IMG/VR virus record: IMGVR_UViG_3300045988_177721
Location: 1-55,314 of that record
Direction: 5' to 3' (one strand)
DNA: 55,314 bases
Source: a virus
In this document: positions 9,304-43,981 of the stretch, one piece after another
How the letters are laid out: each line of letters opens with the position of its first letter
Position numbering within the stretch: position 1 is the first letter of the stretch
Made by a program: the position numbers and the translations under genes
Notes under the pieces: model-generated
What the model was told of the DNA's origin: nothing
Databases searched by the model: none
The model's input: only the letters and a program-made list of their open reading frames with translations

Positions 9304-9304
9304 A

Positions 9305-10855
9305 TTAGTATCCTCCTAAAGTTCCATCTAAAGATTCAATTAATTGTTCATTGACTCTTTCACCAGCTTTAATATAAGATGACTGTTGATTTAATGGAAT
9401 ATTTGTAAAGCTATTATCAATTTTAACGTTCGCAGTTTTACTATTTGAAATGCTATAAGAGTTAACTAAATCAGAAAGCATAGAAGCTCTATCTTCTTCT
9501 GTAACCTTTTTATCTTTTCCTAATTTTGAAGCAATCCACGTTATTGCACTTAACATAGTTGATAATACCTTCATACTAACCTCCATAAAGTTAATAATTG
9601 TATCTTTATTTTCAGCAAAGAATTCAATAATTACCATTTGTTTTTTATTTTCAAAATCTTGTCTTTGCATTTGATATTCTTCATATTTTTTAAATAAACC
9701 TTTATCTTCAATTTTTTGATATTCAGTAGAGTAGTAACCAATTTTTTTAGCAAATTCATTTCTTGCGGCTTGTCCCATATACATTAAATCTTCTTCAGAA
9801 CCTATGTTCATATCTTCTTTAGCCCTTGTTAAAGCATAATTTTGGGCAGATGATAATCCATATTTTATAGCTTGTTCGGTTGCTTCTGAATTATATCTAA
9901 GACTAGTTTTTAAATTATATTGACTCATTCTATCGAATTCACTTAAAGCATCAGATAAAGTTTTTTTAATAGAATCTGCAAAATTTTTCAAAGCAGAAGC
10001 GATTTTATCTTTAATAGCATCCCCTAAATTTTTACCTGCTTCTTTCCAATCAATCGTTTTTTTCCAATCTAATTTTCCTAAATCAATTTTATTTTGTAAT
10101 CCTTCTTTTTCTTTAAGTGCTTTTTGTGATTCAGATTGAAGTTCAATTTGTTTATCGTTTAATAAAGAAATATTGTTTGCGATTTCTAAAAGTTCTGGAA
10201 ATTCAGATTGTAATGTATTAGAGATAATATTCATATCTTTTTTTAATATTTCATTCTTAGCAAGTAAATTATTAATTTCGTCTTCTCCACCTTCTACTCC
10301 ACTTAAAGATTGAATTTTATTTGAATTTTCTTGAATTTGATTTTGATACCCTAAAAATTGTTGATATAAATCATATCCTTCAGAAGAGTTTAATTTTTCT
10401 TCAAGAGACTTAATAGAAGAATCAAGTTCACTATTACTTTCTTTTAGAAAATTCAAATAATCAGTTAAATCAACAATTCTATCTTTTGCTTCTTCTAAAG
10501 CGTCGTTAGAAAAAATATTAGTTCCTCTTGAAAGTCCTTTAAAGAAATCAGTTATTGTTTGAGGTTGATTTTGAGTTAAATATGATTGTTCTTCCATACT
10601 CTTATTAATTTCTTTAACTAAATCAGAAGCACTCAAATTAGCACTGTTTTGAGTTCCAAAAGTAGCAGATTTATCTTTCGTTTGATTAGAGATATTGTTT
10701 ATAGAACTTGCAAATTTTTTTTGTAAATCATCAAAAGGTTTTCTTAATTTATTCATAATTCTTCCAAAATCTTCAGGTATATTATTCATTTCATTTTTAA
10801 AAGTTGATAAATCTAATTCAGGTATGATTCTAACTTTTTTAATATACTGTTGCAT
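9305..10855 (-). CDS. Coiled-coil protein, tape-measure-like
   Basis: 516 aa dominated by heptad-like Q/E/K/L repeats. It lies immediately downstream of a pair of small chaperone-like ORFs, the canonical position of a tape-measure protein. Confidence 0.5.
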   Translation of the reverse strand: MQQYIKKVRIIPELDLSTFKNEMNNIPEDFGRIMNKLRKPFDDLQKKFASSINNISNQTKDKSATFGTQNSANLSASDLVKEINKSMEEQSYLTQNQPQTITDFFKGLSRGTNIFSNDALEEAKDRIVDLTDYLNFLKESNSELDSSIKSLEEKLNSSEGYDLYQQFLGYQNQIQENSNKIQSLSGVEGGEDEINNLLAKNEILKKDMNIISNTLQSEFPELLEIANNISLLNDKQIELQSESQKALKEKEGLQNKIDLGKLDWKKTIDWKEAGKNLGDAIKDKIASALKNFADSIKKTLSDALSEFDRMSQYNLKTSLRYNSEATEQAIKYGLSSAQNYALTRAKEDMNIGSEEDLMYMGQAARNEFAKKIGYYSTEYQKIEDKGLFKKYEEYQMQRQDFENKKQMVIIEFFAENKDTIINFMEVSMKVLSTMLSAITWIASKLGKDKKVTEEDRASMLSDLVNSYSISNSKTANVKIDNSFTNIPLNQQSSYIKAGERVNEQLIESLDGTLGGY

Positions 10856-10858
10856 AAA

Positions 10859-11050
10859 TTACCTCCTCCTTCTTCTAATAGATTTATTATTATTTTTAAG
10901 TCCTATCGCTCTATTGTGCAAATTAACTAAACATACTTCGTATAAATCAATGGCCTCTTCAAAAGTGTAGTCATCTCTTAATTCTTTTAAAGTTGCATAT
11001 CTATTTGAGAGCAGCACATACATTATTGAATTGACCCTACTACTTGACAT
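10859..11050 (-). CDS. Small ORF, possible downstream (T) part of a G/GT-type tail assembly chaperone
   Basis: 63-aa ORF ending RRRRR. Its frame is open for about 37 nt upstream, across the stop of the 104-aa ORF, in the -1 frame relative to that ORF. Confidence 0.4.
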   Translation of the reverse strand: MSSSRVNSIMYVLLSNRYATLKELRDDYTFEEAIDLYEVCLVNLHNRAIGLKNNNKSIRRRRR

Positions 11051-11100
11051 AAATTCAAGGTTATCATTTTCTCCGAAGTCATTGATGGCTGTATCTGACT

Positions 11101-11415
11101 CTATTCTTCGGATTTCCTGAAAAGTGGTTGAAGATAATCTTTAATGAAATATATACATAATTGCTGTAAAGCAATGTAATCGTTTTGAATATCGAGAGGC
11201 ATATAAACTTCTCTACCTTTTTCTTTCAAAGTAACCCACATATTATTTAAAGATACTTCAATGTGTTCTAAAATAAAATTAAATAAAGTTTCAGTTTGAG
11301 ATAACGAGTTAAAATTAATTTGTGTTTGAATTGCTAATATTTCAACCGTTGATATTTTACCAACTCTGAAAAGTTCTTTTCTTCCTTCTATATTAAATGT
11401 TTCATTTTCTTTCAT
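11101..11415 (-). CDS. Putative tail assembly chaperone (G-like)
   Basis: 104-aa ORF immediately upstream of the 63-aa ORF and the tape-measure-like gene. This is the classic chaperone position. Confidence 0.45.
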   Translation of the reverse strand: MKENETFNIEGRKELFRVGKISTVEILAIQTQINFNSLSQTETLFNFILEHIEVSLNNMWVTLKEKGREVYMPLDIQNDYIALQQLCIYFIKDYLQPLFRKSEE

Positions 11416-11430
11416 TTTAATTTCCTCCTT

Positions 11431-13008
11431 TTAAGGTAATAAGGTAATGGTAACTATATAATCAGTTAAAGCTGCTTTAGCATTTGTTCCGAGATATAAT
11501 GTTAATGTAGTTCCTCTAGATATAGTAGGTTGTATGGTAATTGAACCATTTGAACAACATAGATTTATTTCATGTGTAGCACTCGATTCTGTTATTTTAA
11601 AAATGGTTGAATGGAATCCTTGATTTCCTGAACCAGCAAATACTCCATAAGGAATTCTATTATATGATATAACAGTTGAGTAGTGAACTGAATTAGATTC
11701 AATATTTGAACTACTATCAAGCTCAATTAATACTCTTAAATTATCTAATGCACTTAATTCAGCACCATTTGCAAAATTTGATATTAAAGTGTTAAAATTG
11801 ATAGAATAATAGAATAAAGAACCATACCTTGTGAAATTACCAATTTGTTTGTTAAATTTGAATTGTGAAATTAAATTACCAGTTTGTCTACTAAAATTTA
11901 ATTCTAAATTACGTTTAAAACCAGGAATGTATTTTTTAGGAGTACTATGTGAACCTCCTGCTACAACAGATGTTAAATCATAAGCAGATAAATTACCATC
12001 AATATCATCTCCATCCGGAGTTAATGATGGATATTCAACATAATCCGTTTCACCTTGACCATTTGCTGTAATAAGTGACCTATCAGGAGCACTTCCTGTG
12101 TTTAAGTTATTAGCTTTAGCAACTACATCGGCTGAACCAACTCGTAAATTTCTACTTCCTGTCCAGTAAGGAGCAAATCCATCAGAGACTAATACATTTT
12201 GGTCTTCTCCTTCTTGAGGAGCACTTAAAAACTTAGTTTGACTATTTTGAGTATAAACTAACTCATTTGTACCAGCGTTTAATAAATCTTTAGCAGTTGT
12301 TGAATTTTTAACAGTTAGTCCATCACTTTCAAAAATATCAATAAGGTCTTTGCCTCCAATAGTCGAATCAACATTTTTTGAATTATTAACATTATCGACA
12401 GATTTTTTAAACACTGTCTTATTTCCAGTTGGACCAAATTCGAACTCAACGTTTGAATCAGCTTTAGTATTTGTGTTTTTAAAATCTAATAAAGAACTTG
12501 CTTCATCTGAACTATCAGCATGAGTAATATCTAAATCTTGTTCTGATACAAACAAGTATCCATTATTTTCAGTTTTAGTTGGATTATAGCATAATATTTG
12601 ATTTTGATTGATACTAGAAGGGTTATATACAATTGGTTTCAAAGAATTGTTATAAAAGTAAACTATATATCCTGAAGTGTTAGCTGCATTAAACATATCC
12701 AGTAAATCATTTAATTTAGTTTTTTGATATGAGAAAAAAGTATTAAATAATTCAATGAAATCATTAAGAGAAGTATTAGGTCCATAAGTTTTATTTAATG
12801 ATGAAGTTGATTCATCTGAAATAACATATTTAATAATAGCGTTTGCAATTAATGAATCTTGTCTTAAGATAGCATTCATTATATTTGAACGAACAACTGT
12901 ACCAGATTGATATCCAGAAAGACGTTCATTTGAATTATTAAATTCTGAATCAGAAAGTATATTAGAAGTATTTTCAGCAAATACTTTTACATTATTTATA
13001 TTAGCCAT
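11431..13008 (-). CDS. Asn/Ser/Thr-rich structural protein (candidate major tail or sheath-type protein)
   Basis: ORF track 11431..13029. The likely start is 13008 (MANINN), with RBS GGGAGG and an ATG overlapping the TAA of the Tad2-like gene. It is beta-rich and low-complexity. Confidence 0.5.
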   Translation of the reverse strand: MANINNVKVFAENTSNILSDSEFNNSNERLSGYQSGTVVRSNIMNAILRQDSLIANAIIKYVISDESTSSLNKTYGPNTSLNDFIELFNTFFSYQKTKLNDLLDMFNAANTSGYIVYFYNNSLKPIVYNPSSINQNQILCYNPTKTENNGYLFVSEQDLDITHADSSDEASSLLDFKNTNTKADSNVEFEFGPTGNKTVFKKSVDNVNNSKNVDSTIGGKDLIDIFESDGLTVKNSTTAKDLLNAGTNELVYTQNSQTKFLSAPQEGEDQNVLVSDGFAPYWTGSRNLRVGSADVVAKANNLNTGSAPDRSLITANGQGETDYVEYPSLTPDGDDIDGNLSAYDLTSVVAGGSHSTPKKYIPGFKRNLELNFSRQTGNLISQFKFNKQIGNFTRYGSLFYYSINFNTLISNFANGAELSALDNLRVLIELDSSSNIESNSVHYSTVISYNRIPYGVFAGSGNQGFHSTIFKITESSATHEINLCCSNGSITIQPTISRGTTLTLYLGTNAKAALTDYIVTITLLP

Positions 13009-13009
13009 A

Positions 13010-13204
13010 TTATAACGCCTCCCAATCATTAGCTAAGGTATTAGATATAGTTAAACCTAAATCACCTTCTGTAATTTCTTTTCCATTACTTAAATGAATA
13101 GTTAATTTGAAAGTTGATTGGTCGATAAACCAATAACCTTTCCAACCTTTTCTTCTAACCTTTAGACCTGCTTTCATCATTTTCCAAGCATCTCTAAATT
13201 TCAT
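13010..13204 (-). CDS. DUF2829-domain protein, Tad2-like (Thoeris anti-defence sponge family)
   Basis: 64 aa: MKFRDAWKMMKAGLKVRRKGWKGYW...NTLANDWEAL. This matches the DUF2829 signature (F.eAl.amk.GkkvrRkgW ... DWEi). It is embedded in the late operon and translationally coupled to the downstream gene. Confidence 0.6.
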   Translation of the reverse strand: MKFRDAWKMMKAGLKVRRKGWKGYWFIDQSTFKLTIHLSNGKEITEGDLGLTISNTLANDWEAL

Positions 13205-13207
13205 AAA

Positions 13208-13642
13208 TTATTCCTCGCTTTCGCTGATTTTTTCTAAATAGTCAATATCATCAACAAATTCTTCTTTTTTCTTAGCTACTTTCTTAGCAGGTTTTTCAAG
13301 AACTTTATCCTTGTTTAATTCTACTTCAATTTTTTGATTTCCTTTATTTAATTTATCTTTTAATGCTTTAGCTTCTTCTTTTTCAAAATCAGGTTCATCT
13401 GTATATTCACCAATAGTTATAACCTTATCTTTTTGTAGACATTTAACAGTGTTCCATTCAGTGATTTCACTTGGATAAAAATGAGAACCTTCTCTAATAG
13501 GAATAATACGTTTTGACCAAAGTGAGTTAATTTTTAAGCGGTCAGCAACATGAGCGTCTGGATTTGTTACATCCCTATACTCTAAACCAGATGTTACATT
13601 AATATTAATTTGTGATTGAATTCTTACATAAGCTTTTTTCAT
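13208..13642 (-). CDS. Hypothetical protein with K/E-rich helical C-terminus
   Basis: 144-aa ORF with RBS GGAGGAAA. Confidence 0.55.
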   Translation of the reverse strand: MKKAYVRIQSQININVTSGLEYRDVTNPDAHVADRLKINSLWSKRIIPIREGSHFYPSEITEWNTVKCLQKDKVITIGEYTDEPDFEKEEAKALKDKLNKGNQKIEVELNKDKVLEKPAKKVAKKKEEFVDDIDYLEKISESEE

Positions 13643-13668
13643 ATTTTAATTTCCTCCTTTTAAGCTTT

Positions 13669-13935
13669 TTAAAAATCATTTTCCATATCTATTATATATA
13701 CTCTCATAAATTCACCATTTAAGAATCTACATAAATTGTCTTTTCTTTGAAGAGCATTATATAATTCAACATTTATTAAATTTACATTTTGTCTAGTTAT
13801 TTCTTTATTTTGAAACTCTAGAATCTCTCGTACATTGTCGAATATGTAGAGTAATACTTCATCTGTCACATCATAAAAAGCGATGATATATTTATTTTTA
13901 TAGAATTTTACCTTTTCTTTTTCAAGAGGTAACAT
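13669..13935 (-). CDS. Hypothetical protein
   Basis: 88-aa ORF with RBS. Confidence 0.5.
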   Translation of the reverse strand: MLPLEKEKVKFYKNKYIIAFYDVTDEVLLYIFDNVREILEFQNKEITRQNVNLINVELYNALQRKDNLCRFLNGEFMRVYIIDMENDF

Positions 13936-13945
13936 AAATAATCAC

Positions 13946-15535
13946 CTACTTTTTAGAATGCTTAAATAGTTTTTTGAATAATGAATCTTTTTGTTTTGTT
14001 ATAAACTCATTTTCATTTTCTTTAATTTCATTTTCATTTTCTTCTTCAGGTTCATCCAAATCGATATTTTCAAATTCATCTTTAGTATTTTCTTCAAGTT
14101 CTTTTAAATATTCTTCATCAAAACCAAAATTAATTTCATTCTTATTAATAAAGTGTTGAAGAATTTCAGCATATTTCTTAGTTGTTAAAATACCATCACC
14201 TAACATACTTGATAATAAAGTTTGAAATTTAGATAAACCATCCATTCTTTCATCATCATGTTTTTTAATTAATAATGAATTAAATTCAAATTCAATATTT
14301 TCTTTGATATTGTATTTTTTGTAAAGAATCCACAAAAACTTTTCAAGGACTGGTCTAAAATAAGATTCAGCTCTATTTAAAATTGTTTCATCATATCTTT
14401 CTAATGCGTCCGTATCATTTGAGAATCCTTGTTTTAAATCTCCAAATAACACACCTTGCATTTCTAAAGCTGCAGAGATTAACCACATATTTTGTTCTAA
14501 TAACTCGGCTAATCCATTTAAACCTGAAAAACCATGTTCTTGGTATTCGTCTTCTTTATCTAAGAAGGTTAAACTGTTATATGTCCTACCCCAGTTAACC
14601 ATTTCTAACCTAGCTCGAAGTTGATTTTCTGAAGCTTCATCTTGACCCATGAAAACTCCTCTCATTCCAGCCATTTTGATAACTTCAATCAATGCTTTAT
14701 TAACTAAAGATTGAATTGATGCTTTAAGTTGGTCATCTCTCGATAATTCGTTAAGAATGTGAGCTCCTTCTGCATATCCCCAACCTTGAAGCTGACCAGT
14801 TTTAATTAATTTAGGAGCTGTACGGTGTTCATATCTAAGAATGAAATCATGATGAACATTCATGCTAACTCCATCTGCAAAAGTAATTCTATAAGTTTTA
14901 GGTTTACCGAAGTCTAAAGATTTCATATTTGACACAGTATCTTCTGAAACAACTCCTACACCATACCATCTGTCCGTAACATACAATCGAATACTTTTAG
15001 AATCTTGTATTTTCTTTAAATCCATAGGTTTAGCGTAATCTTCATTGTTCATAGTATCAAACATAACAACTGCTACTGACCCACCAAATAAAGCACCCCA
15101 TTGTAGAAGATTGATAAAATCAGTTCGATATTTTTTTAAATCTTTTAAAATCATATCTTTTTTTTCTTCGTCTTTTAAACTTAAAGTTATGCCACAACGA
15201 ACAACATCAGTTGATGGTTTATCAATAGCTCTTCTAAAAACCCAAGAATCGTTATACAGAGCTAACCACAAAGGCCAGTTTAGAGTATCATTTGAAAAAC
15301 CGTAATTAGTGAACGATTGAACTTTATCGTCAGTACCAATAGAACTTAGAGTATTTCCATAGTGGTCGTGAATTGAACTTTTCATTGCTTCAGAACTATT
15401 ACCTAAGTCAACTAATTTTTCTATTTTTTCTTCAGAGCTATCTTCTAATGTTTTTCTTTCACTATCTTTTAACTGCATTTCTTTCATCATAGCAATAACT
15501 TTAGAATTACTGTAATTTTTATTTTCCTCTGACAT
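13946..15535 (-). CDS. Putative portal protein
   Basis: 529 aa with an acidic C-terminal tail (EENTKDEFENIDLDEPEEENENE). It is the first gene of the late operon, and its size and acidic C-terminus are typical of portals. No family motif was verified. Confidence 0.4.
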   Translation of the reverse strand: MSEENKNYSNSKVIAMMKEMQLKDSERKTLEDSSEEKIEKLVDLGNSSEAMKSSIHDHYGNTLSSIGTDDKVQSFTNYGFSNDTLNWPLWLALYNDSWVFRRAIDKPSTDVVRCGITLSLKDEEKKDMILKDLKKYRTDFINLLQWGALFGGSVAVVMFDTMNNEDYAKPMDLKKIQDSKSIRLYVTDRWYGVGVVSEDTVSNMKSLDFGKPKTYRITFADGVSMNVHHDFILRYEHRTAPKLIKTGQLQGWGYAEGAHILNELSRDDQLKASIQSLVNKALIEVIKMAGMRGVFMGQDEASENQLRARLEMVNWGRTYNSLTFLDKEDEYQEHGFSGLNGLAELLEQNMWLISAALEMQGVLFGDLKQGFSNDTDALERYDETILNRAESYFRPVLEKFLWILYKKYNIKENIEFEFNSLLIKKHDDERMDGLSKFQTLLSSMLGDGILTTKKYAEILQHFINKNEINFGFDEEYLKELEENTKDEFENIDLDEPEEENENEIKENENEFITKQKDSLFKKLFKHSKK

Positions 15536-20915: not shown

Positions 20916-20944
20916 TACAATAAAATGAAATGAGGAATAAAACA

Positions 20945-21547
20945 ATGGATTTTAAAGAAGCATATCAAAAAATGTTAGAAGGAAAGAAAGTTAAAAGAAA
21001 AGGTTGGGAAGACTGGCAATATTATAAATTAATTGGAGATAATATGTATTATGCTAACAAACTAATAGCTTCAAATGTTAGTATTGAAAACGCTTTAGCT
21101 AACGATTGGGAAGTTGTAGAAGAAACTAAAAGCAAAGTTTGGAAACCTAAAAAAGGTGAAAATTATTTTTTTATCACTAGCAGTTTAGAAGTTAATAAAT
21201 TTACAAATGAAGGAGATATGGTTGATGAAAGTATTATAGGCTGCGATAATTGTTTTAAAACTGAAGAAGAAGCTCAACATATGATAGAGAAGTTAAAAGT
21301 AATAAAAGAATTACAAAATTTTGCTTTAGAAAATAGAGATGAAGAAATTAGTTGGGATGAAGATAGTCGTTATAAATTTTATATTTACTTTGATTATAAG
21401 TGGAAAATGATAAGAATTACTTGGGCTACTGTAGCACATGGCTCTCCTTTTAATATATATTTTGCTTCAGAAAAAGCAATACATGATGCTATTGAATCTA
21501 TTGGTGAAGACAGAATTAAAAAATATTACTTTGATGTTAAAGATTAA
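20945..21547 (+). CDS. Two-domain DUF2829 (Tad2-like) protein, paralog 2 of 3
   Basis: MDFKEAYQKMLEGKKVKRKGWEDWQYYKL...ALANDWEVVEE is a canonical DUF2829 N-domain. The C-terminal domain is conserved with paralogs 1 and 3. Confidence 0.6.
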   Translation: MDFKEAYQKMLEGKKVKRKGWEDWQYYKLIGDNMYYANKLIASNVSIENALANDWEVVEETKSKVWKPKKGENYFFITSSLEVNKFTNEGDMVDESIIGCDNCFKTEEEAQHMIEKLKVIKELQNFALENRDEEISWDEDSRYKFYIYFDYKWKMIRITWATVAHGSPFNIYFASEKAIHDAIESIGEDRIKKYYFDVKD

Positions 21548-25815: not shown

Positions 25816-25987
25816 AAATATTTGTAAAATTTATTTTGATGAAAAAAAATATAATATGGAATTAAATTTATCAGAAACATATAAATTAAGTTTATCTCGA
25901 CAACTTTTAGATGATTCTTTAAAATTTATTAAAATTAGCAATTTAGTTATTAATAAGGATAAAATAGAGTATGTCGAATTCATTTAG
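25802..25987 (+). CDS. Hypothetical small protein
   Basis: 61-aa ORF. Confidence 0.4.
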   Translation: MKKDKNICKIYFDEKKYNMELNLSETYKLSLSRQLLDDSLKFIKISNLVINKDKIEYVEFI

Positions 25988-26399
25988 ACCATCTTGGGAA
26001 GAAACCTATTTTGAAATTGCTAAAGTTATAAGTAAAAGAAGTAAAGACCCTCATACAAAAGTTGGAGCTGTTTTAGTTAAGGATGGAAGAGTTTTAGGAG
26101 TTGGTTACAATGGTGAACCGAGAGAATTTACATATTCATTTAACTGGTTTACTGAAGAAAAATATAATTATGTTATTCATGCTGAGTTAAATGCAATTGC
26201 TAATGCCTGTTCTATAGGAGCAAATGTTACAGGAAGTGATATATACTTAACTTTATCACCATGTTCAAATTGTATAAAATTATTAATTCAACATCAAATT
26301 CGAAATGTTTATTTTTTAAAAAAATATAAGGATTTTGAGTTAACTGAAAAAATTGCAAATCATGCAAATATAAATTTAATTTACAAAGGAGAAAAATAA
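25971..26399 (+). CDS. dCMP (deoxycytidylate) deaminase
   Basis: Cytidine/dCMP deaminase zinc motifs HAELNAI and SPCSNCIKLL (H[AC]E ... PCxxC). Size 142 aa. Confidence 0.8.
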   Translation: MSNSFRPSWEETYFEIAKVISKRSKDPHTKVGAVLVKDGRVLGVGYNGEPREFTYSFNWFTEEKYNYVIHAELNAIANACSIGANVTGSDIYLTLSPCSNCIKLLIQHQIRNVYFLKKYKDFELTEKIANHANINLIYKGEK

Positions 26400-31373: not shown

Positions 31374-32609
31374 ATGAAAAGTAAAACAATTACAACATTA
31401 GTTGTTGAAGGAACTGACGGTGTTGGAAAAACAACATTATATAAAAATTTATTAGATTATTATAACTATATGTATTGTGTATATGATAGAGGAGAATTAT
31501 CAAATATTGTATATGCTGAAAAATACAATCGTCCATTTTGTTCAACACAAAGAGGTTTACCTATATTATATATTTTATTAATTTGTAATAAATCTGAATT
31601 AAAAAGAAGAATTATAGAAAGAGCTGAAAATGAAAAATGGTTAGCAAAAGATGTTAATAGTGAATTAAATAAGATAAATGACCAAGATAACTTTATTAAA
31701 TATTATGATTCTTTTAAAAAGGATTATCATATAATTAAAATTGATTGCACAAATTTAAATGAAAAAGAATTATTAAAATTAGCAGTTAAAGAAATAAATA
31801 ATTATGTTAATAATTTATCTATTGACGATAACTTAAGTTCGTGGAATGAATTATACAAATCAGGATGTGAAAAATTAGGATTAAAATTTAAGTGTATAAA
31901 TAATCAACCTTATATTAATAATGTACCGATTATGGCAGAATGTAATTTACACAACGGTATGTATGAAATGTTTGATAATAAAACAATTCCTCATAATTTA
32001 ATATATTGCCAAGCATATACTCAAAAAGAATTTATGTTTGATTGCGATTTTTCAATAGTTGATTTTTATGATAGGAAAGAAGATTTTTCATATATTATTA
32101 ATTCAAAAATTTTTTCGAGACGCGAGTTGTTTGATTATTTTAAAAAATTTACTGAAAATAATATATCATGTATTACTGGAGATATTTTTATCGATAATCC
32201 ATTAATTAAACGCTCTCCTCGAGTTTTTGGTGATGATTATATTAAAAAAATAGGAGAAGCAAAAGCAACTGTTTATGTTGCTAGAGAATTAGCATATTTA
32301 AAATATACAACAACTAGATTATATGAAAGTATTTTAGCAAAGCAAATAATATTTGTTGATAAATTATCTGACCCTGAATGTATTATTTTAAATTCAATTT
32401 ATAAAAATTCAAAATATAAAAGTACTTTAATATCATTATTATATGTTGATGAAAATTCAATTTGTGATAATTATAAAATAATTCTTAATGATTATAATTT
32501 GGTTAATGAAATTATAATAAATCAATTTAATTATTATAACGAATTAAAAGCAAGTGTATTAACAAATAATTTATTTATTCAATTAGGAGATAAAAATGAA
32601 AGTAATTAA
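31374..32609 (+). CDS. Thymidylate-kinase-like dNMP kinase fused to a roughly 200-aa C-terminal domain of unknown function
   Basis: P-loop VVEGTDGVGKTTL (Tmk signature EG.DG.GKTT) and YDRGELSNIVY (the DRY/Ss region of Tmk). The 411-aa length is about twice that of a Tmk. Confidence 0.65.
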   Translation: MKSKTITTLVVEGTDGVGKTTLYKNLLDYYNYMYCVYDRGELSNIVYAEKYNRPFCSTQRGLPILYILLICNKSELKRRIIERAENEKWLAKDVNSELNKINDQDNFIKYYDSFKKDYHIIKIDCTNLNEKELLKLAVKEINNYVNNLSIDDNLSSWNELYKSGCEKLGLKFKCINNQPYINNVPIMAECNLHNGMYEMFDNKTIPHNLIYCQAYTQKEFMFDCDFSIVDFYDRKEDFSYIINSKIFSRRELFDYFKKFTENNISCITGDIFIDNPLIKRSPRVFGDDYIKKIGEAKATVYVARELAYLKYTTTRLYESILAKQIIFVDKLSDPECIILNSIYKNSKYKSTLISLLYVDENSICDNYKIILNDYNLVNEIIINQFNYYNELKASVLTNNLFIQLGDKNESN

Positions 32610-33345
32610 AGGAAATACAATAACAGATGTATATAAAGAATTAATAGATTATTTATTAAGTGAAAGTATTGAATGTAATAATGGAACAAAAGAAATTGAA
32701 AATGGTATTTTAGAAATATTAAATCCTTCATTAGAAAATATCAATTTTCCATATCGTCATATTTCGATAAAATATTCTGATGCTGAACTTGAATGGTATT
32801 GGAAAGCACATAATTCATGTGATGAAATAGGAAAATTTGCTAAAATGTGGTTAAATTTAACAGATGATGGAAAAACTAATAATTCTGCATATGGATATAT
32901 TTTATTCAAAAAATATAACTTTAATCAATTAGAGCAAATTATAGAATTATTAAAAAAAGATATTGACAGTAGAAGAGCAGTATTAAATATTTCTGACCCA
33001 ACAATTAATAGAATAACAACAAAAGATATGCAATGTACAATTGGACTTCAATTTTTAATTAGAAATAATAAATTAAATATGACAGTATATATGAGGAGTA
33101 ATGATGTATATTTTGGACTTCCATATGATTATATCTTCTTTGAGAGTATTCATCAATATATTTTTATGAGATTAAAAGAATGTTATTCTGAATTAAAATT
33201 AGGTTCTTATACACATGTTGCAACATCATTACATATGTATAATAGAGATGTAGAAAAATTTAAAACTCAAAAATCAAATTTTATTTCAATAGATATGGAT
33301 AAAATAAAAAAATATTATAAAGAAGGAGATTCTATAAAATGTTAA
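32596..33345 (+). CDS. Thymidylate-synthase-family pyrimidine C5-modifying enzyme with Asp at the ThyA Asn177 position (dCMP hydroxymethylase-like)
   Basis: It aligns to ThyA around the catalytic Cys: QCTIGLQFLIRNNKLNMTVYMRSNDVYFGLPYD versus [33 protein letters not shown], with Q, F, K, L, Y, R, S, D, V, G, L, P conserved at identical offsets. Upstream DSRRAVLNISDP matches ThyA DSRRIIVSAWNP, and AELEWYWKA matches ELLWFLKG. The residue 31 positions after the Cys is Asp rather than Asn. Confidence 0.7.
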   Translation: MKVIKGNTITDVYKELIDYLLSESIECNNGTKEIENGILEILNPSLENINFPYRHISIKYSDAELEWYWKAHNSCDEIGKFAKMWLNLTDDGKTNNSAYGYILFKKYNFNQLEQIIELLKKDIDSRRAVLNISDPTINRITTKDMQCTIGLQFLIRNNKLNMTVYMRSNDVYFGLPYDYIFFESIHQYIFMRLKECYSELKLGSYTHVATSLHMYNRDVEKFKTQKSNFISIDMDKIKKYYKEGDSIKC

Positions 33346-34133
33346 AATCTATAAGTTTTATTATACCTTGCGCAGGAAAAGGAAGTAGACTGTCAATTCC
33401 TTCAGCAAAAGAATTATTACCTGTTGATTATAACACAACACTAATTGATTGTGTATTTAATAATTTAAAAAATTATAAATATAAAGCTAATTTTATTTTT
33501 ATTATTTCAAAAGAAAAAACTGACTTAATAAAATATTTAAGTAAATATTCAGATAATTATGATATTTATTTCGTATATCAAAAATCAAATAAAAAAGATT
33601 TATTAGGTGCAATAGAATCTGCTGAAAATTTATTTAGTGAAAAAAATATATTAATATTACCTGATATATTATTATTAGATGATAGTATCTATTTAAAAAT
33701 AGATGATTACATTAAATTATTAGATAAAAATATTGATTTATCTATTTTAGATTATTGTGAGTTTAGTGATAGTAAAAAAGAAAAATTGGGAAATGTTAAA
33801 TATGATGAGAATGAAAACATATTAGGAATTATAGATAAACCAACAAATCATACAATACTACAAAATGAGAATTCATTTTGCTGGGTATCTTTAGGATTTA
33901 GAAGTGATAAAGTGTTTGAATTTTATAATATTTTTAAACAAATCCAAATAAAAGATAAATATGTTGATTTAGAAAAAAATAAAATTAATGCAAAATCTAT
34001 TCATATTCGTAATGCTATTGATTTAGGTGTATGGGATAATATAAGATTATTTCATTCACAATATGAATATTATATAAATCTAGAAAAAGTTTGTGGTCGA
34101 GATTATTTACATTTTAATAAAAAAGATATATAA
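33339..34133 (+). CDS. Sugar-phosphate nucleotidyltransferase-like protein (NTP_transferase fold)
   Basis: N-terminal IIPCAGKGSRLSIPSAKELLPV matches the G.G.RL....PK.LLPV signature of glucose-1-P nucleotidyltransferases. LLGAIESAEN and ILILPDILLLDD correspond to the GTA.A and GD..l motifs. Confidence 0.6.
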   Translation: MLKSISFIIPCAGKGSRLSIPSAKELLPVDYNTTLIDCVFNNLKNYKYKANFIFIISKEKTDLIKYLSKYSDNYDIYFVYQKSNKKDLLGAIESAENLFSEKNILILPDILLLDDSIYLKIDDYIKLLDKNIDLSILDYCEFSDSKKEKLGNVKYDENENILGIIDKPTNHTILQNENSFCWVSLGFRSDKVFEFYNIFKQIQIKDKYVDLEKNKINAKSIHIRNAIDLGVWDNIRLFHSQYEYYINLEKVCGRDYLHFNKKDI

Positions 34134-34156: not shown

Positions 34157-34573
34157 ATGAAAATTAAGTTATTAGATAAAGGAAAATTTCCTACAAAATC
34201 TCATAAAGAAGATATAGGTTTAGATTTATATTTACCTGAAAAGATAATATTAACACCTTTTGAGACAAAAACAATAGGTTTAAAAATGTGTGTTGCAATT
34301 CCAGAAGGATTTGCAGGAATGATTGTTCCTAGAAGTTCAATTGCTAAAAAAGGATTAATTATGCAAACTCAAATTATCGACCCTGGTTATCAAGGAGAGA
34401 TTCATTTAATTGTTACGAATTGTTCAAATTCAATTCAAACATTTGATGAAAATGAAAGATTATGTTCACTTGTTGTTTATTCAATTTTAAATCCTTATCT
34501 TGAAGAGGTTAATGAATTCACAGAAATTTCAAGTAGAGGAAAAAATGGTTTAGGAAGTTCAGGAAAATATTAA
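34157..34573 (+). CDS. dut: dUTP diphosphatase (dUTPase)
   Basis: All trimeric dUTPase motifs are present: IGLDLY, VPRSS, IIDPGYQGE and C-terminal SRGKNGLGSSGKY. RBS AAAGGAGAAA. Confidence 0.85.
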   Translation: MKIKLLDKGKFPTKSHKEDIGLDLYLPEKIILTPFETKTIGLKMCVAIPEGFAGMIVPRSSIAKKGLIMQTQIIDPGYQGEIHLIVTNCSNSIQTFDENERLCSLVVYSILNPYLEEVNEFTEISSRGKNGLGSSGKY

Positions 34574-34574
34574 A

Positions 34575-36374
34575 ATGAATACTTTTAAAATTGTTATTTT
34601 TGATTTTGAAGTATTTAAGTATAATACTTTATTAGGAGCAATCGTAATTAATGATGGTGAAATTAACTTATTTCAATCATGGGATTTAGATGAAATTAAA
34701 AACTTTTACAAAGAACATATTAATGATATCTGGGTAGGTCATAATAATGAAAGATATGATAATTTTATATTACAATCTATTATTTGTAATATAAATCCAT
34801 ATATAACATCTAAAACAATAATTAATTCTGATGAATTCAAATATAAAAAATTAGGTATTCATTTATATTATTTTGATATTTTTTTAAATCATCCAGGTTC
34901 ATTAAAAGCAATAGAATGTGGAAATGGTAAAAACATTTCTGAAACAAATGTAGAGTTTGATATTAATAGAGAATTAACGATTGAAGAGAAAGAATTAACA
35001 GAATCATATAACTTTGATGATTTAGAGCAAACATTTGAAAATTTTTTAGAAATTTTTGAAGAGTTAAAATTAAGATTGTTAATGATTCAAGAATTTAATT
35101 TAGATATGACAGTATTACACTGCTCTGAAACTCAATGTGCTGAAAAAGTATTGAAATCAACAAAAATTGAAGGTATTGAAAATTGTTATGTTGCTCCTAA
35201 AATTTATCCTGATATGCAAGTAAAAAATCAAGATGTATTAAATTTTTATTTAAAAGAAAAATTTAGGATGGAAAATCAATCATTTATATTTGATTTATGT
35301 GGAGTACCACACAAATTAGCAAAAGGTGGTTTACATGGTGCTGAAAAGTTTTGTCATGTTGATTGGGCTTATTATTTTGACGTTTCAGGATATTATAATT
35401 TAATAATGATTTTAAAAGGATTATTACCTAGAACAATTCCTGATGAAGGTAAAAAATTATATGAATATATGTATCATAAACAATTAGAGTTAAAAATAAC
35501 AAATCCTATTATGAGACCTGTGTATAAAACAATTTTACTTGCAGTGTTTGGTTCAATGTTAAATAAATGGACTCAATTTTATGACCCTCAGCGCGGTACT
35601 TTAGTTACTATTTTAGGACAATTATACATTATTGATTTATTAGAGAAATTAGAAGGTAAAATAAGATTAATACAAACAAATACAGATGGTGTAATTGCGA
35701 AACCATTAAATGAAAAATATGAAAAAGAAATGATTGATATAATTAATGAATGGCAAAAAAGAACAGGATTTACATTAAAATTTGATAAAATATATGACAT
35801 TCATCAAAGAGATGTTAACAACTATATGTACAGAGATGAAAAAGGAAAAATTAATGTTCATGGAGAATTAGTTAAATATTATGATTCATGGGAGAAAGTT
35901 CTTCAAAAAGATGTATTCAATACAAAAGAACCTCCGATAATTCATCATGGAGTAGTTGAATTTTATATGAATAAAAAGTTACCAGAGCAAACTGTTGAAG
36001 AAAATAAAAATAATTTAAGAATGTTTCAATATTGTTGTCGAAAAAACTCATTTGATTGGTTAGAATATGAAGAAATTAATTTAGAAAATGGTGAAATAAA
36101 AACTATAAAACTTCAACACGTTAATAGAGCGTTTGCAATGAAATCTGATAAATACTTAGGAATGATTTACAAACGAAAATATGTAGGTAAAACAACAAAA
36201 GCTAAAGCTCAAAATTTACCTGATTCTGTTTTTGTTTATAATCATGAAATACTTTCTAAAGAAACAGTTAATAAATTAGTTAACGAAATTGATTATGATT
36301 ACTACGTTAAAAGAATATACGAAAGAATTAAAGAATTAATATATATTCCAATCATAAAGGATTTAAAGATATGA
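34575..36374 (+). CDS. Compact family-B DNA polymerase with N-terminal 3'-5' exonuclease (phi29-size)
   Basis: Exo I IFDFEV; Exo II GHNNERYDNFIL (compare phi29 HNLKFDGAFI); Exo III Y..D; motif A YYFDVSGYYN (Dx2SLYP-like); motif B K..L.AVFGSMLNK; motif C IQTNTDGVI. 599 aa. Confidence 0.6.
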   Translation: MNTFKIVIFDFEVFKYNTLLGAIVINDGEINLFQSWDLDEIKNFYKEHINDIWVGHNNERYDNFILQSIICNINPYITSKTIINSDEFKYKKLGIHLYYFDIFLNHPGSLKAIECGNGKNISETNVEFDINRELTIEEKELTESYNFDDLEQTFENFLEIFEELKLRLLMIQEFNLDMTVLHCSETQCAEKVLKSTKIEGIENCYVAPKIYPDMQVKNQDVLNFYLKEKFRMENQSFIFDLCGVPHKLAKGGLHGAEKFCHVDWAYYFDVSGYYNLIMILKGLLPRTIPDEGKKLYEYMYHKQLELKITNPIMRPVYKTILLAVFGSMLNKWTQFYDPQRGTLVTILGQLYIIDLLEKLEGKIRLIQTNTDGVIAKPLNEKYEKEMIDIINEWQKRTGFTLKFDKIYDIHQRDVNNYMYRDEKGKINVHGELVKYYDSWEKVLQKDVFNTKEPPIIHHGVVEFYMNKKLPEQTVEENKNNLRMFQYCCRKNSFDWLEYEEINLENGEIKTIKLQHVNRAFAMKSDKYLGMIYKRKYVGKTTKAKAQNLPDSVFVYNHEILSKETVNKLVNEIDYDYYVKRIYERIKELIYIPIIKDLKI

Positions 36375-40400: not shown

Positions 40401-41039
40401 ATGAATTTTAGTGAAGCTTTATATAAAATGAAAGAAGGAAAAAAAGTAAAAAATGAATTTTTAAATAAACATGGATACTTATACATGTTTTTAGATAAAG
40501 AAAAAGGTATTATGATTAGAACTCTTAATGATGAATACGATGAAATTTATGAAAATTTATCTACAGAAGAACTTTTATCAGAAAATTGGGAAATATATGA
40601 AGAGTCTAAATGGAAACCGAAAGAAAAAGAATTATATTTTTATATTACTTCAAATGGAGACATAGAATTTAGTTATTATAAAAATAAAAGTATAAATGAT
40701 AAACGTCGTATTTATGATATTGGTAATTATTTTAAAACGGATGAAAAAGCTGAACATATTGTGGAGAAGTTAAAAATAATAAGAGAGCTACAAGATTTTG
40801 CTTTAGAGAATAATGACAAAAACGTTGATTGGAGAGATAAATGCACAGGTAAATATTTTATAACTTATGATTTTTATGATGAAGAAATCTCAATCGCTAG
40901 TTATACTTTTAGAAATTTTTTACCATTTAATATTTTCTTTACTTCAAAAGAGATAGCTCAAAAAGCTATTACAAAAATAGGAAAAGAACGACTTGAAAGA
41001 TATTACTTTGATATAAAAGAAAAAGAAGAAATAAAATAA
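40401..41039 (+). CDS. Two-domain DUF2829 (Tad2-like) protein, paralog 3 of 3
   Basis: MNFSEALYKMKEGKKVKNEF...LSENWEIYEE N-domain, with a C-terminal domain conserved with paralogs 1 and 2 (WKPKEKELYFYITS, FKTDEKAEHIVEKLKIIRELQDFALEN, PFNIFFTS, IGKERLERYYFDIKE). Confidence 0.55.
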   Translation: MNFSEALYKMKEGKKVKNEFLNKHGYLYMFLDKEKGIMIRTLNDEYDEIYENLSTEELLSENWEIYEESKWKPKEKELYFYITSNGDIEFSYYKNKSINDKRRIYDIGNYFKTDEKAEHIVEKLKIIRELQDFALENNDKNVDWRDKCTGKYFITYDFYDEEISIASYTFRNFLPFNIFFTSKEIAQKAITKIGKERLERYYFDIKEKEEIK

Positions 41040-41597: not shown

Positions 41598-43136
41598 ATG
41601 AGTATATATGAAAAGTTATTTAATTGGCAACAAAAAATAGTAAATAAATATAAAGATAGAACTGATTTTGGAATTTGGTTGGATATGGGTTTAGGTAAAA
41701 CTCCCATATCCTTATCCTTTGCAGAAATTAATAATTGTTCAAAAATATTAGTAATTACAATAAATTCAAAAATTGAAGATAGTTCAATTTCAGGTTCATT
41801 CGCAAATTGGTTATTAAACTCAAATATTAAATATAATTTACATTATAAGAGTGATAAAGAATTTAATTTTAAAACCGATGAGAATGATTTCTTTATTGTC
41901 AATTACGAATACTTATTTAAAAGAAAAAAAACAAATGAGAGAAATTCAATTGAATTAAGAAAAGAAATAACAGACTTTATTAATTCTTGTAAAGGTCATA
42001 ATTTAGCTATTATAATTGATGAGTCTCATAAAATAAAAGACCAAAATTCAACACAAACAAAATGTATAAATAAAATTAAAAAGTTAGCTTTACTTAAAGC
42101 GTCAAATGTTTATTCTTATTTATTAACAGGAACTCCATTTACACAAGGTTATATTGATTTATATTCTCAATTAAAGTTTTTAGGTTATGAATCATCTAAA
42201 CAGGATTTTAAAGATGCGTTCTGTATAGTCGGAAACATTAAAGGTCTTCTTGGATGGCAACAACCAATCGTGGGTTATAAAAATATTGATGGATTATACA
42301 GAATTATTCATCGATATGCTATCACAATTCAAACTGATGAGGTTGAAGATTTACCAGACCAAGTTCATATTTCAATTAAACAAAAAGAATCTGAGTTATT
42401 TAACTTATTTATACATGAAAAAATTAAAGGTAATGAAATAAAGAAAGAACTTGAAAAAAGAAAAGTATTATCTGATTTAAACAGATACAATACGGATATT
42501 TTAATGAATAATCCTTTTTATCGGAACATTGATTATCCTGAACAAAAGTACGTAGCTGATACACCTGGAAATTTTTGGTTAAGAGCTCGTCAGTTATCGA
42601 TTGGATTTCAAGGAAATTCAAAAGATTATTGTTGGTATGATAAAACCAGATTGGAAGAATTAGAATTCTTTTTAGAAAATAATCCAGATAATTATATATT
42701 ATTTTATAATTATACCCCTGAATTGTATGAGATATTTGATATTTGTGAAAAATTAAAATATAATATCGATATATTTTCAGGAGAAATAAAATCTTTATAT
42801 TTTTATGAAAAATATCAATCTCAATCGCCTGAAGAAAAATTTACAAATAAAAAAAATATAATATTAGCAAACTTTGCAAGTGGTTCAACAGGTAAAAATT
42901 GGCAAGAATATAATAAATGTATTATATTTTCAATACCAGTTTATAAAGATTATTCTCAAGGAATTAAGAGAATTCATCGACTCGGGCAAAAAGAAACGGT
43001 AATTTATTATCATTTTTATCAATCTAATTTTTTAGATTATGGGATGAAAAAAGCATTAGATGAAAAAATAGATTATAATATAAATATGTTTCAAAGTGAT
43101 TTAAAGAATAACGATAATTTATTAAATAAGACTTAA
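41598..43136 (+). CDS. SNF2-family (SF2) DNA-dependent ATPase/helicase
   Basis: Motif I IWLDMGLGKT (SNF2 DEMGLGKT), motif II IIIDESHKIK (DExH), SNF2-specific LTGTPFTQGYIDLYSQLKFL (LSGTP.qN...ELw.ll.FL) and C-terminal helicase-C motifs. Confidence 0.7.
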   Translation: MSIYEKLFNWQQKIVNKYKDRTDFGIWLDMGLGKTPISLSFAEINNCSKILVITINSKIEDSSISGSFANWLLNSNIKYNLHYKSDKEFNFKTDENDFFIVNYEYLFKRKKTNERNSIELRKEITDFINSCKGHNLAIIIDESHKIKDQNSTQTKCINKIKKLALLKASNVYSYLLTGTPFTQGYIDLYSQLKFLGYESSKQDFKDAFCIVGNIKGLLGWQQPIVGYKNIDGLYRIIHRYAITIQTDEVEDLPDQVHISIKQKESELFNLFIHEKIKGNEIKKELEKRKVLSDLNRYNTDILMNNPFYRNIDYPEQKYVADTPGNFWLRARQLSIGFQGNSKDYCWYDKTRLEELEFFLENNPDNYILFYNYTPELYEIFDICEKLKYNIDIFSGEIKSLYFYEKYQSQSPEEKFTNKKNIILANFASGSTGKNWQEYNKCIIFSIPVYKDYSQGIKRIHRLGQKETVIYYHFYQSNFLDYGMKKALDEKIDYNINMFQSDLKNNDNLLNKT

Positions 43137-43245: not shown

Positions 43246-43656
43246 ATGAAAAAAGTATTAAAAGAAATTTTATTTTGGACATGGTGTTTACCTCAAACCT
43301 TATTAGGATTTATTTTAAAAATTTTATTTAAAGGAAAAAGAAATTACGAGCCAGCAATAGTGTTTGATAAATTTGATAATATTACCTATTATGATTGCAA
43401 TTTAAGCTCTGGTTCGATATCATTAGGTAAATATTTATTAATATGTAAAGGTCATTCTTCAAATACTCAAATAATTAAACATGAATATGGTCATCAAAAA
43501 CAATCATTTATTTTAGGTCCTTTATATTTATTAATTATCGGACTTCCATCCTTATTATGGGCAAATATATTTTGGAATCCTAAAAAACACAATTATTATT
43601 GGTTTTATACTGAATCATGGGCAAATAAATTAGGAAATGTAAAAGAATATGAGTAA
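43246..43656 (+). CDS. Small two-TM membrane protein with an HExxH zinc-metallopeptidase motif (HEYGHQKQ)
   Basis: ORF track 43210..43656. The likely start is 43246, after RBS AAAGGAGAA. Hydrophobic helices ILFWTWCLPQTLLGFILKILF and FILGPLYLLIIGLPSLLWANIFW flank HEYGH. Confidence 0.45.
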   Translation: MKKVLKEILFWTWCLPQTLLGFILKILFKGKRNYEPAIVFDKFDNITYYDCNLSSGSISLGKYLLICKGHSSNTQIIKHEYGHQKQSFILGPLYLLIIGLPSLLWANIFWNPKKHNYYWFYTESWANKLGNVKEYE

Positions 43657-43981
43657 GTTAACTCCTGAAAAAAAAATCCAAAATAAAGTCATAGCTTATA
43701 TTAAAGAATTACAAAGTAAAGGAATCAACATTGATTATGAACGGCGACAAGCAGGTGGATTTAATTATCAAAAAGGCAAACCAGATTTATTTGTTGTTTT
43801 GGAAGGAATTCATATTGAAATAGAAGTTAAAAAGCCAGGAGGTAAAACAACTCCTCTTCAAGATAAATTTGCTGAGAAATGTAAAAGAATGAACTGTTTA
43901 TATTATTTAATAGACGATGTTGAATATTTTAAAAATTTAATATTAAATTTAATTAACTTATATTCAACATCATCATTGTAA
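43649..43981 (+). CDS. VRR-NUC domain nuclease (PD-(D/E)xK)
   Basis: GKPDLFVVLEGIHIEIEVKKPGGKTTPLQDKF matches the VRR-NUC signature (G.PD ... E.K ... Q.f). 110 aa. Confidence 0.7.
   Translation: MSKLTPEKKIQNKVIAYIKELQSKGINIDYERRQAGGFNYQKGKPDLFVVLEGIHIEIEVKKPGGKTTPLQDKFAEKCKRMNCLYYLIDDVEYFKNLILNLINLYSTSSL

Follow-up and report, generated by a model that had tools for sequence, protein, structure and literature searches.

A T4 gp42-type ThyA homologue beside a kinase and glycosyltransferase-like fusion in a human-gut virus genome: a predicted route to glycosylated 5-hydroxymethylcytosine

Sugar-decorated 5-hydroxymethylcytosine (5hmC) is a known kind of anti-restriction DNA modification. The cultured phages with the closest homologues of the enzyme studied here are Lactobacillus phage ATCCB (46% identity) and Enterococcus phages VPE25 and VFW (45%). 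In experiments, the cytosines of VPE25 and VFW DNA resisted bisulfite, MspI failed to cut the DNA and PvuRts1I cut it, and this pattern was read as glucosylated 5hmC (PMC4999554). In this study, we describe a module in a 55,314-nt stretch of viral DNA (IMG/VR record IMGVR_UViG_3300045988_177721, positions 1 to 55,314; the whole stretch is referred to as the window). The module comprises a ThyA-family enzyme predicted to be a deoxycytidylate (dCMP) hydroxymethylase of the phage T4 gp42 type, a 411-aa fusion of a kinase with a domain resembling the T4 beta-glucosyltransferase (BGT), and a GalU-like enzyme as the predicted sugar donor supplier. We put the probability that these together place glycosylated 5hmC in the phage DNA at about 0.78.

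In VPE25 and VFW the genes run in the order small open reading frame (ORF), ThyA-like gene, dUTPase gene (Dut) and beta-glucosyltransferase gene, and in ATCCB the order is small ORF, ThyA-like gene, beta-glucosyltransferase gene and UDP-galactopyranose mutase gene; a literature search on DNA modification in ATCCB found nothing relevant. These phages share with the window the residue signature of the ThyA-like enzyme described below; they have a small Tmk-like ORF upstream of its gene, and Dut and BGT adjoin it. Their kinase and full-length BGT are encoded by two genes, whereas in the window the two are fused and about 110 N-terminal BGT residues are missing. The cultured phages are siphoviruses of 80-86 kb and the window derives from a 55 kb contractile-tailed phage. 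The arabinosyl-5-hydroxycytosine clusters RB69 gp45-gp55 and DLP3 gp76-83 also combine a Tmk-like kinase, a first glycosyltransferase, a ThyA homologue with the N177D change and a nucleoside diphosphate (NDP)-sugar nucleotidyltransferase (PMC13326640). In those clusters, however, the ThyA homologue is a flavin-dependent hydroxylase bearing D169N, a position at which the window enzyme retains Asp, and the window lacks their arabinose-5-phosphate isomerase, phosphatase and sugar kinase. The dCMP methyltransferase systems of phages XP12 and PaMx74 likewise pair an N177D ThyA homologue with an enzyme of the dCMP deaminase family. PaMx74 differs from the window in having Asn at L143, Pro at H147, a tail like that of thymidylate synthase, an adjacent dihydrofolate reductase (DHFR) gene and no glycosyltransferase.

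The ThyA-family enzyme and its diagnostic residues

The ORF at positions 32596-33345 (+ strand) starts with ATG and encodes 249 aa, the stop codon lying inside the end coordinate. A model that saw only the DNA letters and their ORFs had assigned this product to the ThyA family (the original prediction), and our analysis bears it out. The ORF is real, the motifs DSRRAVLNISDP and QCTIGLQFLIRNNKLNMTVYMRSNDVYFGLPYD are both found in the protein, and Pfam Thymidylat_synt (PF00303) matches it with 73.5 bits against a cutoff of 24.3 bits (E = 2e-20). PHROG families named 'thymidylate synthase' match down to E = 3e-42, and the scores against all NCBIfam thymidylate synthase equivalogs fall far under their cutoffs. 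When all PDB sequences were searched with HMMER, the top matches were MilA (8e-22) and T4 gp42 (2e-18), with thymidylate synthases at 9e-12 or weaker. In an alignment with reference enzymes, E64, Y99, R126, C147, R167, S168 and H213 are invariant, and 90% or more of the sequences share R127 and Y215; the superfamily core looked for consists of the Cys nucleophile, Glu58, Tyr94, Arg166-Ser167, His207/Tyr209 and Arg126'/127'. Judged by its sequence, the protein is a member of the ThyA superfamily (PF00303).

For the residue diagnostics, positions are numbered as in E. coli ThyA, reference enzymes of known activity were taken from annotated records, and PaMx74 ThyA served as a stand-in for 5-methylcytosine (5mC)-type, XP12-like enzymes. 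The N177D change marks a cytosine substrate, and in a MetaGPA analysis no positions told modified and unmodified viral contigs apart better than N177 and H147 (PMC8670742). Acidity at L143, a position linked to water access, goes with a hydroxymethyl instead of a methyl product, and D169N marks the recently discovered flavin-dependent 5-hydroxy-dCMP (5hodCMP) synthases (PMC13326640). Ser167 with Arg126' denotes deoxyribonucleotide substrates, MilA having Ala and Lys instead (PMC5175136). Read at L143/H147/D169/N177, E. coli ThyA is L/H/D/N, SPO1 gp29 (a deoxyuridylate, dUMP, hydroxymethylase) D/N/D/N, RB69 gp48 (a 5hodCMP synthase) E/T/N/D and the ThyA of the 5mC phage PaMx74 N/P/D/D. T4 gp42, the VPE25 homologue and the window protein all read D/T/D/D. 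The same signature was found in 122 of 122 retrieved database relatives and, at related loci, in 83 of 83 ThyA-like ORFs, of which IMG/VR supplied 80.

In the window protein these positions correspond to D144 (L143), T148 (H147), D170 (D169) and D178 (N177), with C147 as the nucleophile, S168 and R126/R127 as further key residues, and H213/Y215 beside them. The claim that an Asp stands at the Asn177 position, 31 residues after the catalytic Cys, was confirmed. D178 lies at C147 +31 and shares its column with T4 gp42 Asp179 and E. coli Asn177 both in HMMER comparison with the PDB and in two MAFFT alignments, so that in alignment with T4 gp42, ThyA and a dUMP hydroxymethylase the Asp is not misaligned; in 6l18, the entry for the D179N mutant of T4 gp42, this column holds N. 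The Asp is invariant in the window protein plus the database relatives (123/123) and in the 83 homologues from related loci, and is therefore a trait fixed in the family instead of a chance substitution. The reported loss of the PCH His also stands, since Thr occupies the place of E. coli His147 (QCT against PCH). D144 is shared with T4 gp42, SPO1 gp29 and MilA, where E. coli has Leu and PaMx74 Asn. D170 lies inside MRSND, which reads MRSQN in RB69 gp48 in the same alignment, and S168 and R126 stand where MilA has Ala176 and Lys133. In the alignment no C-terminal tail of the thymidylate synthase type, homologous to YDPHPGIKAPVAI / TYNPRPEVVE, was found in the window protein, whereas PaMx74 keeps the tail.

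In each feature that can be read from sequence, the 249-aa enzyme is of the T4 gp42-type dCMP hydroxymethylase class, its catalysis being predicted. Like T4 gp42 (PDB 1b49/1b5e), it belongs to the ThyA superfamily, reads D/T/D/D, has Ser and Arg at the deoxyribose-specificity positions, is a short protein without the thymidylate synthase tail, and is encoded next to a BGT-type transferase. Identity to gp42 is only about 27%, and the host of the window phage is, unlike that of T4, a low-GC gut bacterium. The original prediction had likened the surrounding genes to the T4 enzyme set for 5hmC DNA, and this is right as functional analogy but not as orthology: the window kinase is Tmk-like and not gp1-like, its dUTPase is a trimeric Dut and not gp56-type, and no gp56-type dCTPase was detected.

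The kinase and BGT-like fusion and its variable neighbours

The 411-aa protein encoded upstream at 31374-32609 is, by profile and fold, a fusion of the module kinase with a BGT-like glycosyltransferase domain, both with predicted activities. Residues ~1-150 (31374-31823, + strand) contain the P-loop GxxGxGK(T/S), the nucleoside monophosphate (NMP)-binding Arg and the Tmk fold, and form a Tmk-like P-loop kinase domain, a predicted kinase of 5-hydroxymethyl-dCMP (hm-dCMP), a modified deoxynucleoside monophosphate. Residues ~151-411 (31824-32609, + strand) adopt a GT-B fold closest to that of BGT, with counterparts of the residues that bind UDP-glucose, and represent a predicted glycosyltransferase acting on 5hmC in DNA. 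The Tmk-like N-terminus had already been seen in the original prediction, in which the glycosyltransferase domain went unrecognised.

The C-terminal part of the fusion family profile hits the BGT of ATCCB (conditional E = 6e-13) and, less strongly, those of VPE25 and T4; the N-terminal part matches the small ORFs upstream of the ATCCB and VPE25 ThyA-like genes and, weakly, RB69 gp45. Compared profile to profile with an alignment of the BGT family, the fusion family reached 97% probability (E = 3e-11) over the whole donor-binding domain. The homology to BGT is significant only in this kind of comparison and after trimming to the glycosyltransferase part; with the T4 BGT sequence alone as target, the family profile reached no more than 2.4% probability. 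K245, R249, R315 and E318 of the fusion align with T4 R191, R195, R269 and E272, which are invariant in the BGT family and which, in the T4 BGT structures, bind UDP-glucose. The four fusion residues are invariant or nearly so in their own family, and the donor-binding residues do not vary across 56 members. The structure model of the fusion is a rigid two-domain body (predicted template-modelling score, pTM, 0.87). Since a tblastn search of the 411-aa protein against cultured phages gave no match, the family is known only from metagenomes, and as the sole close relative in BFVD is annotated merely 'Deoxyguanosine kinase', the transferase half is without annotation in public data.

A core of Tmk-like kinase, D/T/D/D ThyA-like enzyme, BGT-type transferase and Dut recurs across related contigs in three forms. 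In one, the kinase and a full-length T4-like BGT (E down to 1e-98 against T4 BGT) are separate genes. Another is the kinase and glycosyltransferase fusion of the window's own clade, which is conserved at full length beside the ThyA-like gene and takes the place of the standalone full-length T4-like BGTs. In the remaining form, found at five loci (L021:2814-4136, L024:1483-2799, L034:7506-8819, L049:7458-8756 and L052:7437-8756), a Tmk-like kinase is fused to the D/T/D/D ThyA-like enzyme itself in proteins of ~440 aa. The kinase part of these is N-terminal and is a homologue (E about 1e-20) of the small ORF that precedes the ThyA-like gene in VPE25, and the fusion constitutes Rosetta-stone evidence that the kinase acts on the product of the ThyA-like enzyme.

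The ThyA-like ORF overlaps the fusion ORF by 14 nt upstream and the ORF at 33339-34133 (+ strand) by 7 nt downstream, as in an operon. The downstream gene encodes a sugar-1-phosphate nucleotidylyltransferase of the GalU/RmlA/GlmU-N class (NTP_transferase, PF00483, E = 2.4e-9), closest to the UDP-glucose pyrophosphorylase GalU, and is a predicted NDP-sugar supplier. The G-x-G-(T/S)-R-(L/F) loop, the catalytic Lys and Asp, the (E/D)-K-P motif and the fold are all present, and GalU was the top match both by family profile and by fold of the structure model; phmmer with the single sequence against the PDB gave no match. The earlier suggestion that this gene gives the phage its own NDP-sugar is thus supported, as a predicted activity, by profile and fold.

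The slot between the fusion and Dut that holds the GalU-like enzyme in the window and in L008 is empty in L012 and L014, and elsewhere it is filled differently. In L010 (9882-12046) it holds UDP-galactopyranose mutase (GLF, 1e-68) and an uncharacterised 351-aa protein, possibly a further transferase so far unrecognised, and perhaps a galactofuranosyltransferase. Homologues of the 351-aa protein also lie directly 3' of the ThyA-like gene in three IMG/VR loci (L075-L077, around 8557-9847). In L009 (ERZ27233366 k141_457456, 66 kb), whose ThyA-like protein is 60% identical to that of the window, the slot (8725-14024) holds an uncharacterised 272-aa protein and then a lic-type set of choline kinase (7e-14), LicC/IspD-like nucleotidyltransferase (7e-12), EamA transporter (1e-18) and LicD (6e-34). 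Genes of the lic type classically decorate cell-surface glycans, and the L009 set could serve to place phosphocholine on modified DNA or on the host surface; nothing relevant to phosphocholine or LicD on phage DNA turned up in a literature search. L009 also has two Dut-family paralogues, at 567-1007 and 14189-14599 (146 and 136 aa), where the window has one, and one of them might have altered (dCTP) specificity, given that a dCTPase is missing.

Proposed pathway and alternative explanations

Family membership, residue signature, folds, synteny and conservation were all directly observed at this locus, and from them we infer the following pathway. Cys147 would attack C6 of dCMP while Asp178 reads the N3/N4 face of the cytosine, and the methylene group of methylenetetrahydrofolate would be added at C5 and hydrated instead of reduced, giving hm-dCMP. 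The Tmk-like domain of the 411-aa protein would phosphorylate this product, a host NDP kinase would complete hm-dCTP, and the phage polymerase would incorporate it. After replication, the BGT-like domain would put a hexose, most likely glucose, on the hydroxymethyl group, drawing on UDP-sugar from the GalU-like enzyme encoded immediately downstream. Dut and the dCMP deaminase would meanwhile supply dUMP to the host thymidylate synthase for a genome of 75% A+T. The catalytic activities, the sugar and the degree of cytosine replacement are predictions throughout. The original prediction of hydroxymethylated or methylated cytosine, possibly further decorated, can be narrowed to the hydroxymethyl form. 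Hydroxymethylation and glycosylation are supported by the signature, the PDB matches, the relatives, the BGT-like domain and the GalU-like gene, and the methyl option is dropped.

That option corresponds to a dCMP methyltransferase of the XP12/PaMx74 type that would produce 5mC DNA, with the deaminase at 25971-26399 converting 5-methyl-dC nucleotides to thymidylate. N177D by itself is enough to make a dCMP methylase of a thymidylate synthase (literature via PMC8670742), deaminase-linked N177D homologues make 5mdCMP beside 5mC-selective deaminases (bioRxiv 10.1101/2024.12.05.627091), and the phage has a deaminase, with no other ThyA or ThyX found in the window. We nevertheless consider it improbable, because the L143 equivalent is Asp, as in all characterised hydroxymethylases and not as in PaMx74 or E. 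coli, and because the tail kept by PaMx74 is absent and no DHFR was found in the window, where PaMx74 has frd beside thyA; on these three features the type was rejected. The flanking BGT-like domain and GalU-like enzyme, moreover, both need a hydroxyl acceptor, and the closest cultured relatives behave as carriers of glycosylated 5hmC, not of 5mC, being blocked to MspI and cut by PvuRts1I. More improbable still is a flavin-dependent 5-hydroxy-dCMP synthase like RB69 gp48 or DLP3 gp80, with sugars ether-linked to C5 (glycosyl-5-hydroxycytosine). Those enzymes share N177D and an acidic L143, their clusters of Tmk-like kinase, first glycosyltransferase and NDP-sugar nucleotidyltransferase closely resemble the window, and the kinase half of the fusion weakly matches RB69 gp45, but the diagnostic D169N is absent from the window protein and from all its relatives, and on the retained Asp169 this type was rejected as well. 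Activity on uracil, as thymidylate synthase or dUMP hydroxymethylase, or on CMP in the manner of MilA is scarcely credible. Database annotations of relatives do read 'thymidylate synthase' or 'deoxyuridylate hydroxymethyltransferase', Dut and the dCMP deaminase each supply dUMP, and MilA is the top PDB match. Every family member, however, has Asp for Asn at 177, the NCBIfam thymidylate synthase equivalog scores are all far too low, and Ser168 and Arg126 replace the Ala176 and Lys133 of MilA; Asp178, Ser168 and Arg126 led us to reject all three.

Several points weigh against glycosylated 5hmC itself. The L143 rule separating methyl from hydroxymethyl products is a correlation tested on few characterised enzymes, and the VPE25 evidence concerns DNA rather than the enzyme and is indirect for the window. 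No gp56-type (MazG/PRA-PH) dCTPase was detected by Pfam or PHROG match across the window, where all but a few ORFs below 60 aa were tested, so the exclusion of unmodified dCTP is unexplained. Most relatives do not have the nucleotidyltransferase (15 homologues compared with 106 of the fusion), and sequence does not reveal which sugar it uses. No region of the fusion aligns to BGT residues 1-110, which include Glu22 and the catalytic base Asp100 and in whose place the Tmk-like domain sits; glycosyltransferase activity on DNA is therefore not assured, and for the same reason we call the protein BGT-like and not a BGT orthologue (identity to T4 BGT, PDB 1c3j, is ~13%). As the acceptor half of the transferase is atypical, we allow a small chance that 5hmC is made and stays bare or receives a non-sugar decoration, the 411-aa protein being no DNA glycosyltransferase and the nucleotidyltransferase serving, for example, host-surface modification. 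The patchy occurrence of the nucleotidyltransferase and the lic-type genes of relatives agree with this; the invariant donor-binding residues, the full-length conservation of the fusion beside the ThyA-like gene, its standing where related modules have full-length T4-like BGTs, and its rigid modelled body argue against it. A more speculative extension of the glycosylated 5hmC reading, to which we give a low probability, is that the 411-aa protein is a chimeric DNA glycosyltransferase in which the Tmk-like domain replaces BGT residues ~1-110, and that swappable donor cassettes give the clade diverse 5hmC decorations, possibly including phosphocholine. The Tmk-like domain might then be both the hm-dCMP kinase and the pocket for the flipped-out 5hmC nucleotide.

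If glycosylated 5hmC is indeed made, a widespread clade of uncultured human-gut myoviruses swaps cytosine for it, which bears on their escape from restriction and CRISPR, on their recovery by restriction-, bisulfite- or amplification-based virome methods, and on the reading of their methylation-aware sequencing data. Both the chemistry and the residue diagnostics are in the literature, the latter already applied to hundreds of metagenomic homologues, and what the finding chiefly adds is a new lineage for a known system. The kinase and BGT-like chimera and the variable donor cassettes, above all the lic-type one, were less expected, and new chemistry might lie there; phosphocholine-bearing 5hmC, if it exists, would be a modification for which we found no description in DNA in the literature. 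The enzymes are also candidate epigenomic tools, namely a compact hydroxymethylase and a fused kinase and glycosyltransferase with a possibly different sugar specificity.

Further genes and features of the window

The remaining neighbour assignments of the original prediction were upheld by profile matches, as were those of the Tmk-like N-terminus and the nucleotidyltransferase. A trimeric-type dUTPase (Dut) is encoded at 34157-34573 (+ strand; PF00692, E = 4e-27; phrog_135), and Dut adjoins the ThyA-like gene in VPE25 and in most relatives. The dCMP deaminase family enzyme is encoded at 25971-26399 (+ strand; PF00383, E = 4e-26; phrog_174, E = 2e-39), and its gene directly adjoins the ThyA-like gene in the relative L013. 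The phage DNA polymerase at 34575-36374 (+ strand), which would have to accept modified dCTP, is syntenic with the module in relatives. It matches phrog_1252 strongly (E = 1.4e-96) and has no Pfam match, so it represents a divergent polymerase family. DHFR, ThyX, a second ThyA and a standalone glycosyltransferase were searched for across the window and none was found.

The window is essentially the whole of a 55,386-bp contig (ERZ916398 k127_61277) that was assembled independently from two human-gut metagenomes. The exact ThyA-like protein is encoded on contigs of this same length (L002 and L003) from two samples, ERR321465 and ERR209454, and the agreement in length suggests a complete genome with probable circular permutation. 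Database homologues of the enzyme number more than 1,500, and genomes of ~55 kb recur in independent gut samples. The window has ~25% G+C and contains no tRNAs, hence no tRNA hint at the host, and megablast of 20 kb of it against cultured phages gave no match. Genes for a contractile-tailed virion are encoded (sheath, baseplate, portal, major head protein and terminase), and the coding strand and the GC/AT skew switch together at two places, near 15.5 kb and near 44 kb.

A 985-aa ORF at 908-3865 (- strand) matches head maturation protease families over its first ~310 residues (phrog_530, 3.5e-49); the other ~670 residues are without assignment, an unusual length for a prohead protease. Two ORFs lie downstream of the replication module, an SNF2/ResIII helicase gene (41598-43136, + strand) and one (43649-43981, + strand) with a weak match to VRR-NUC nucleases (E = 9e-4, below cutoff). 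The ORFs at 20930-21547 and 40401-41039 (both + strand) have N-terminal domains resembling Tad2 (Thoeris anti-defence 2, PF11195), the former scoring over the Pfam gathering threshold (28.2 bits, E = 2.7e-6) and the latter just under it (22.2 bits), and both may be anti-defence genes.

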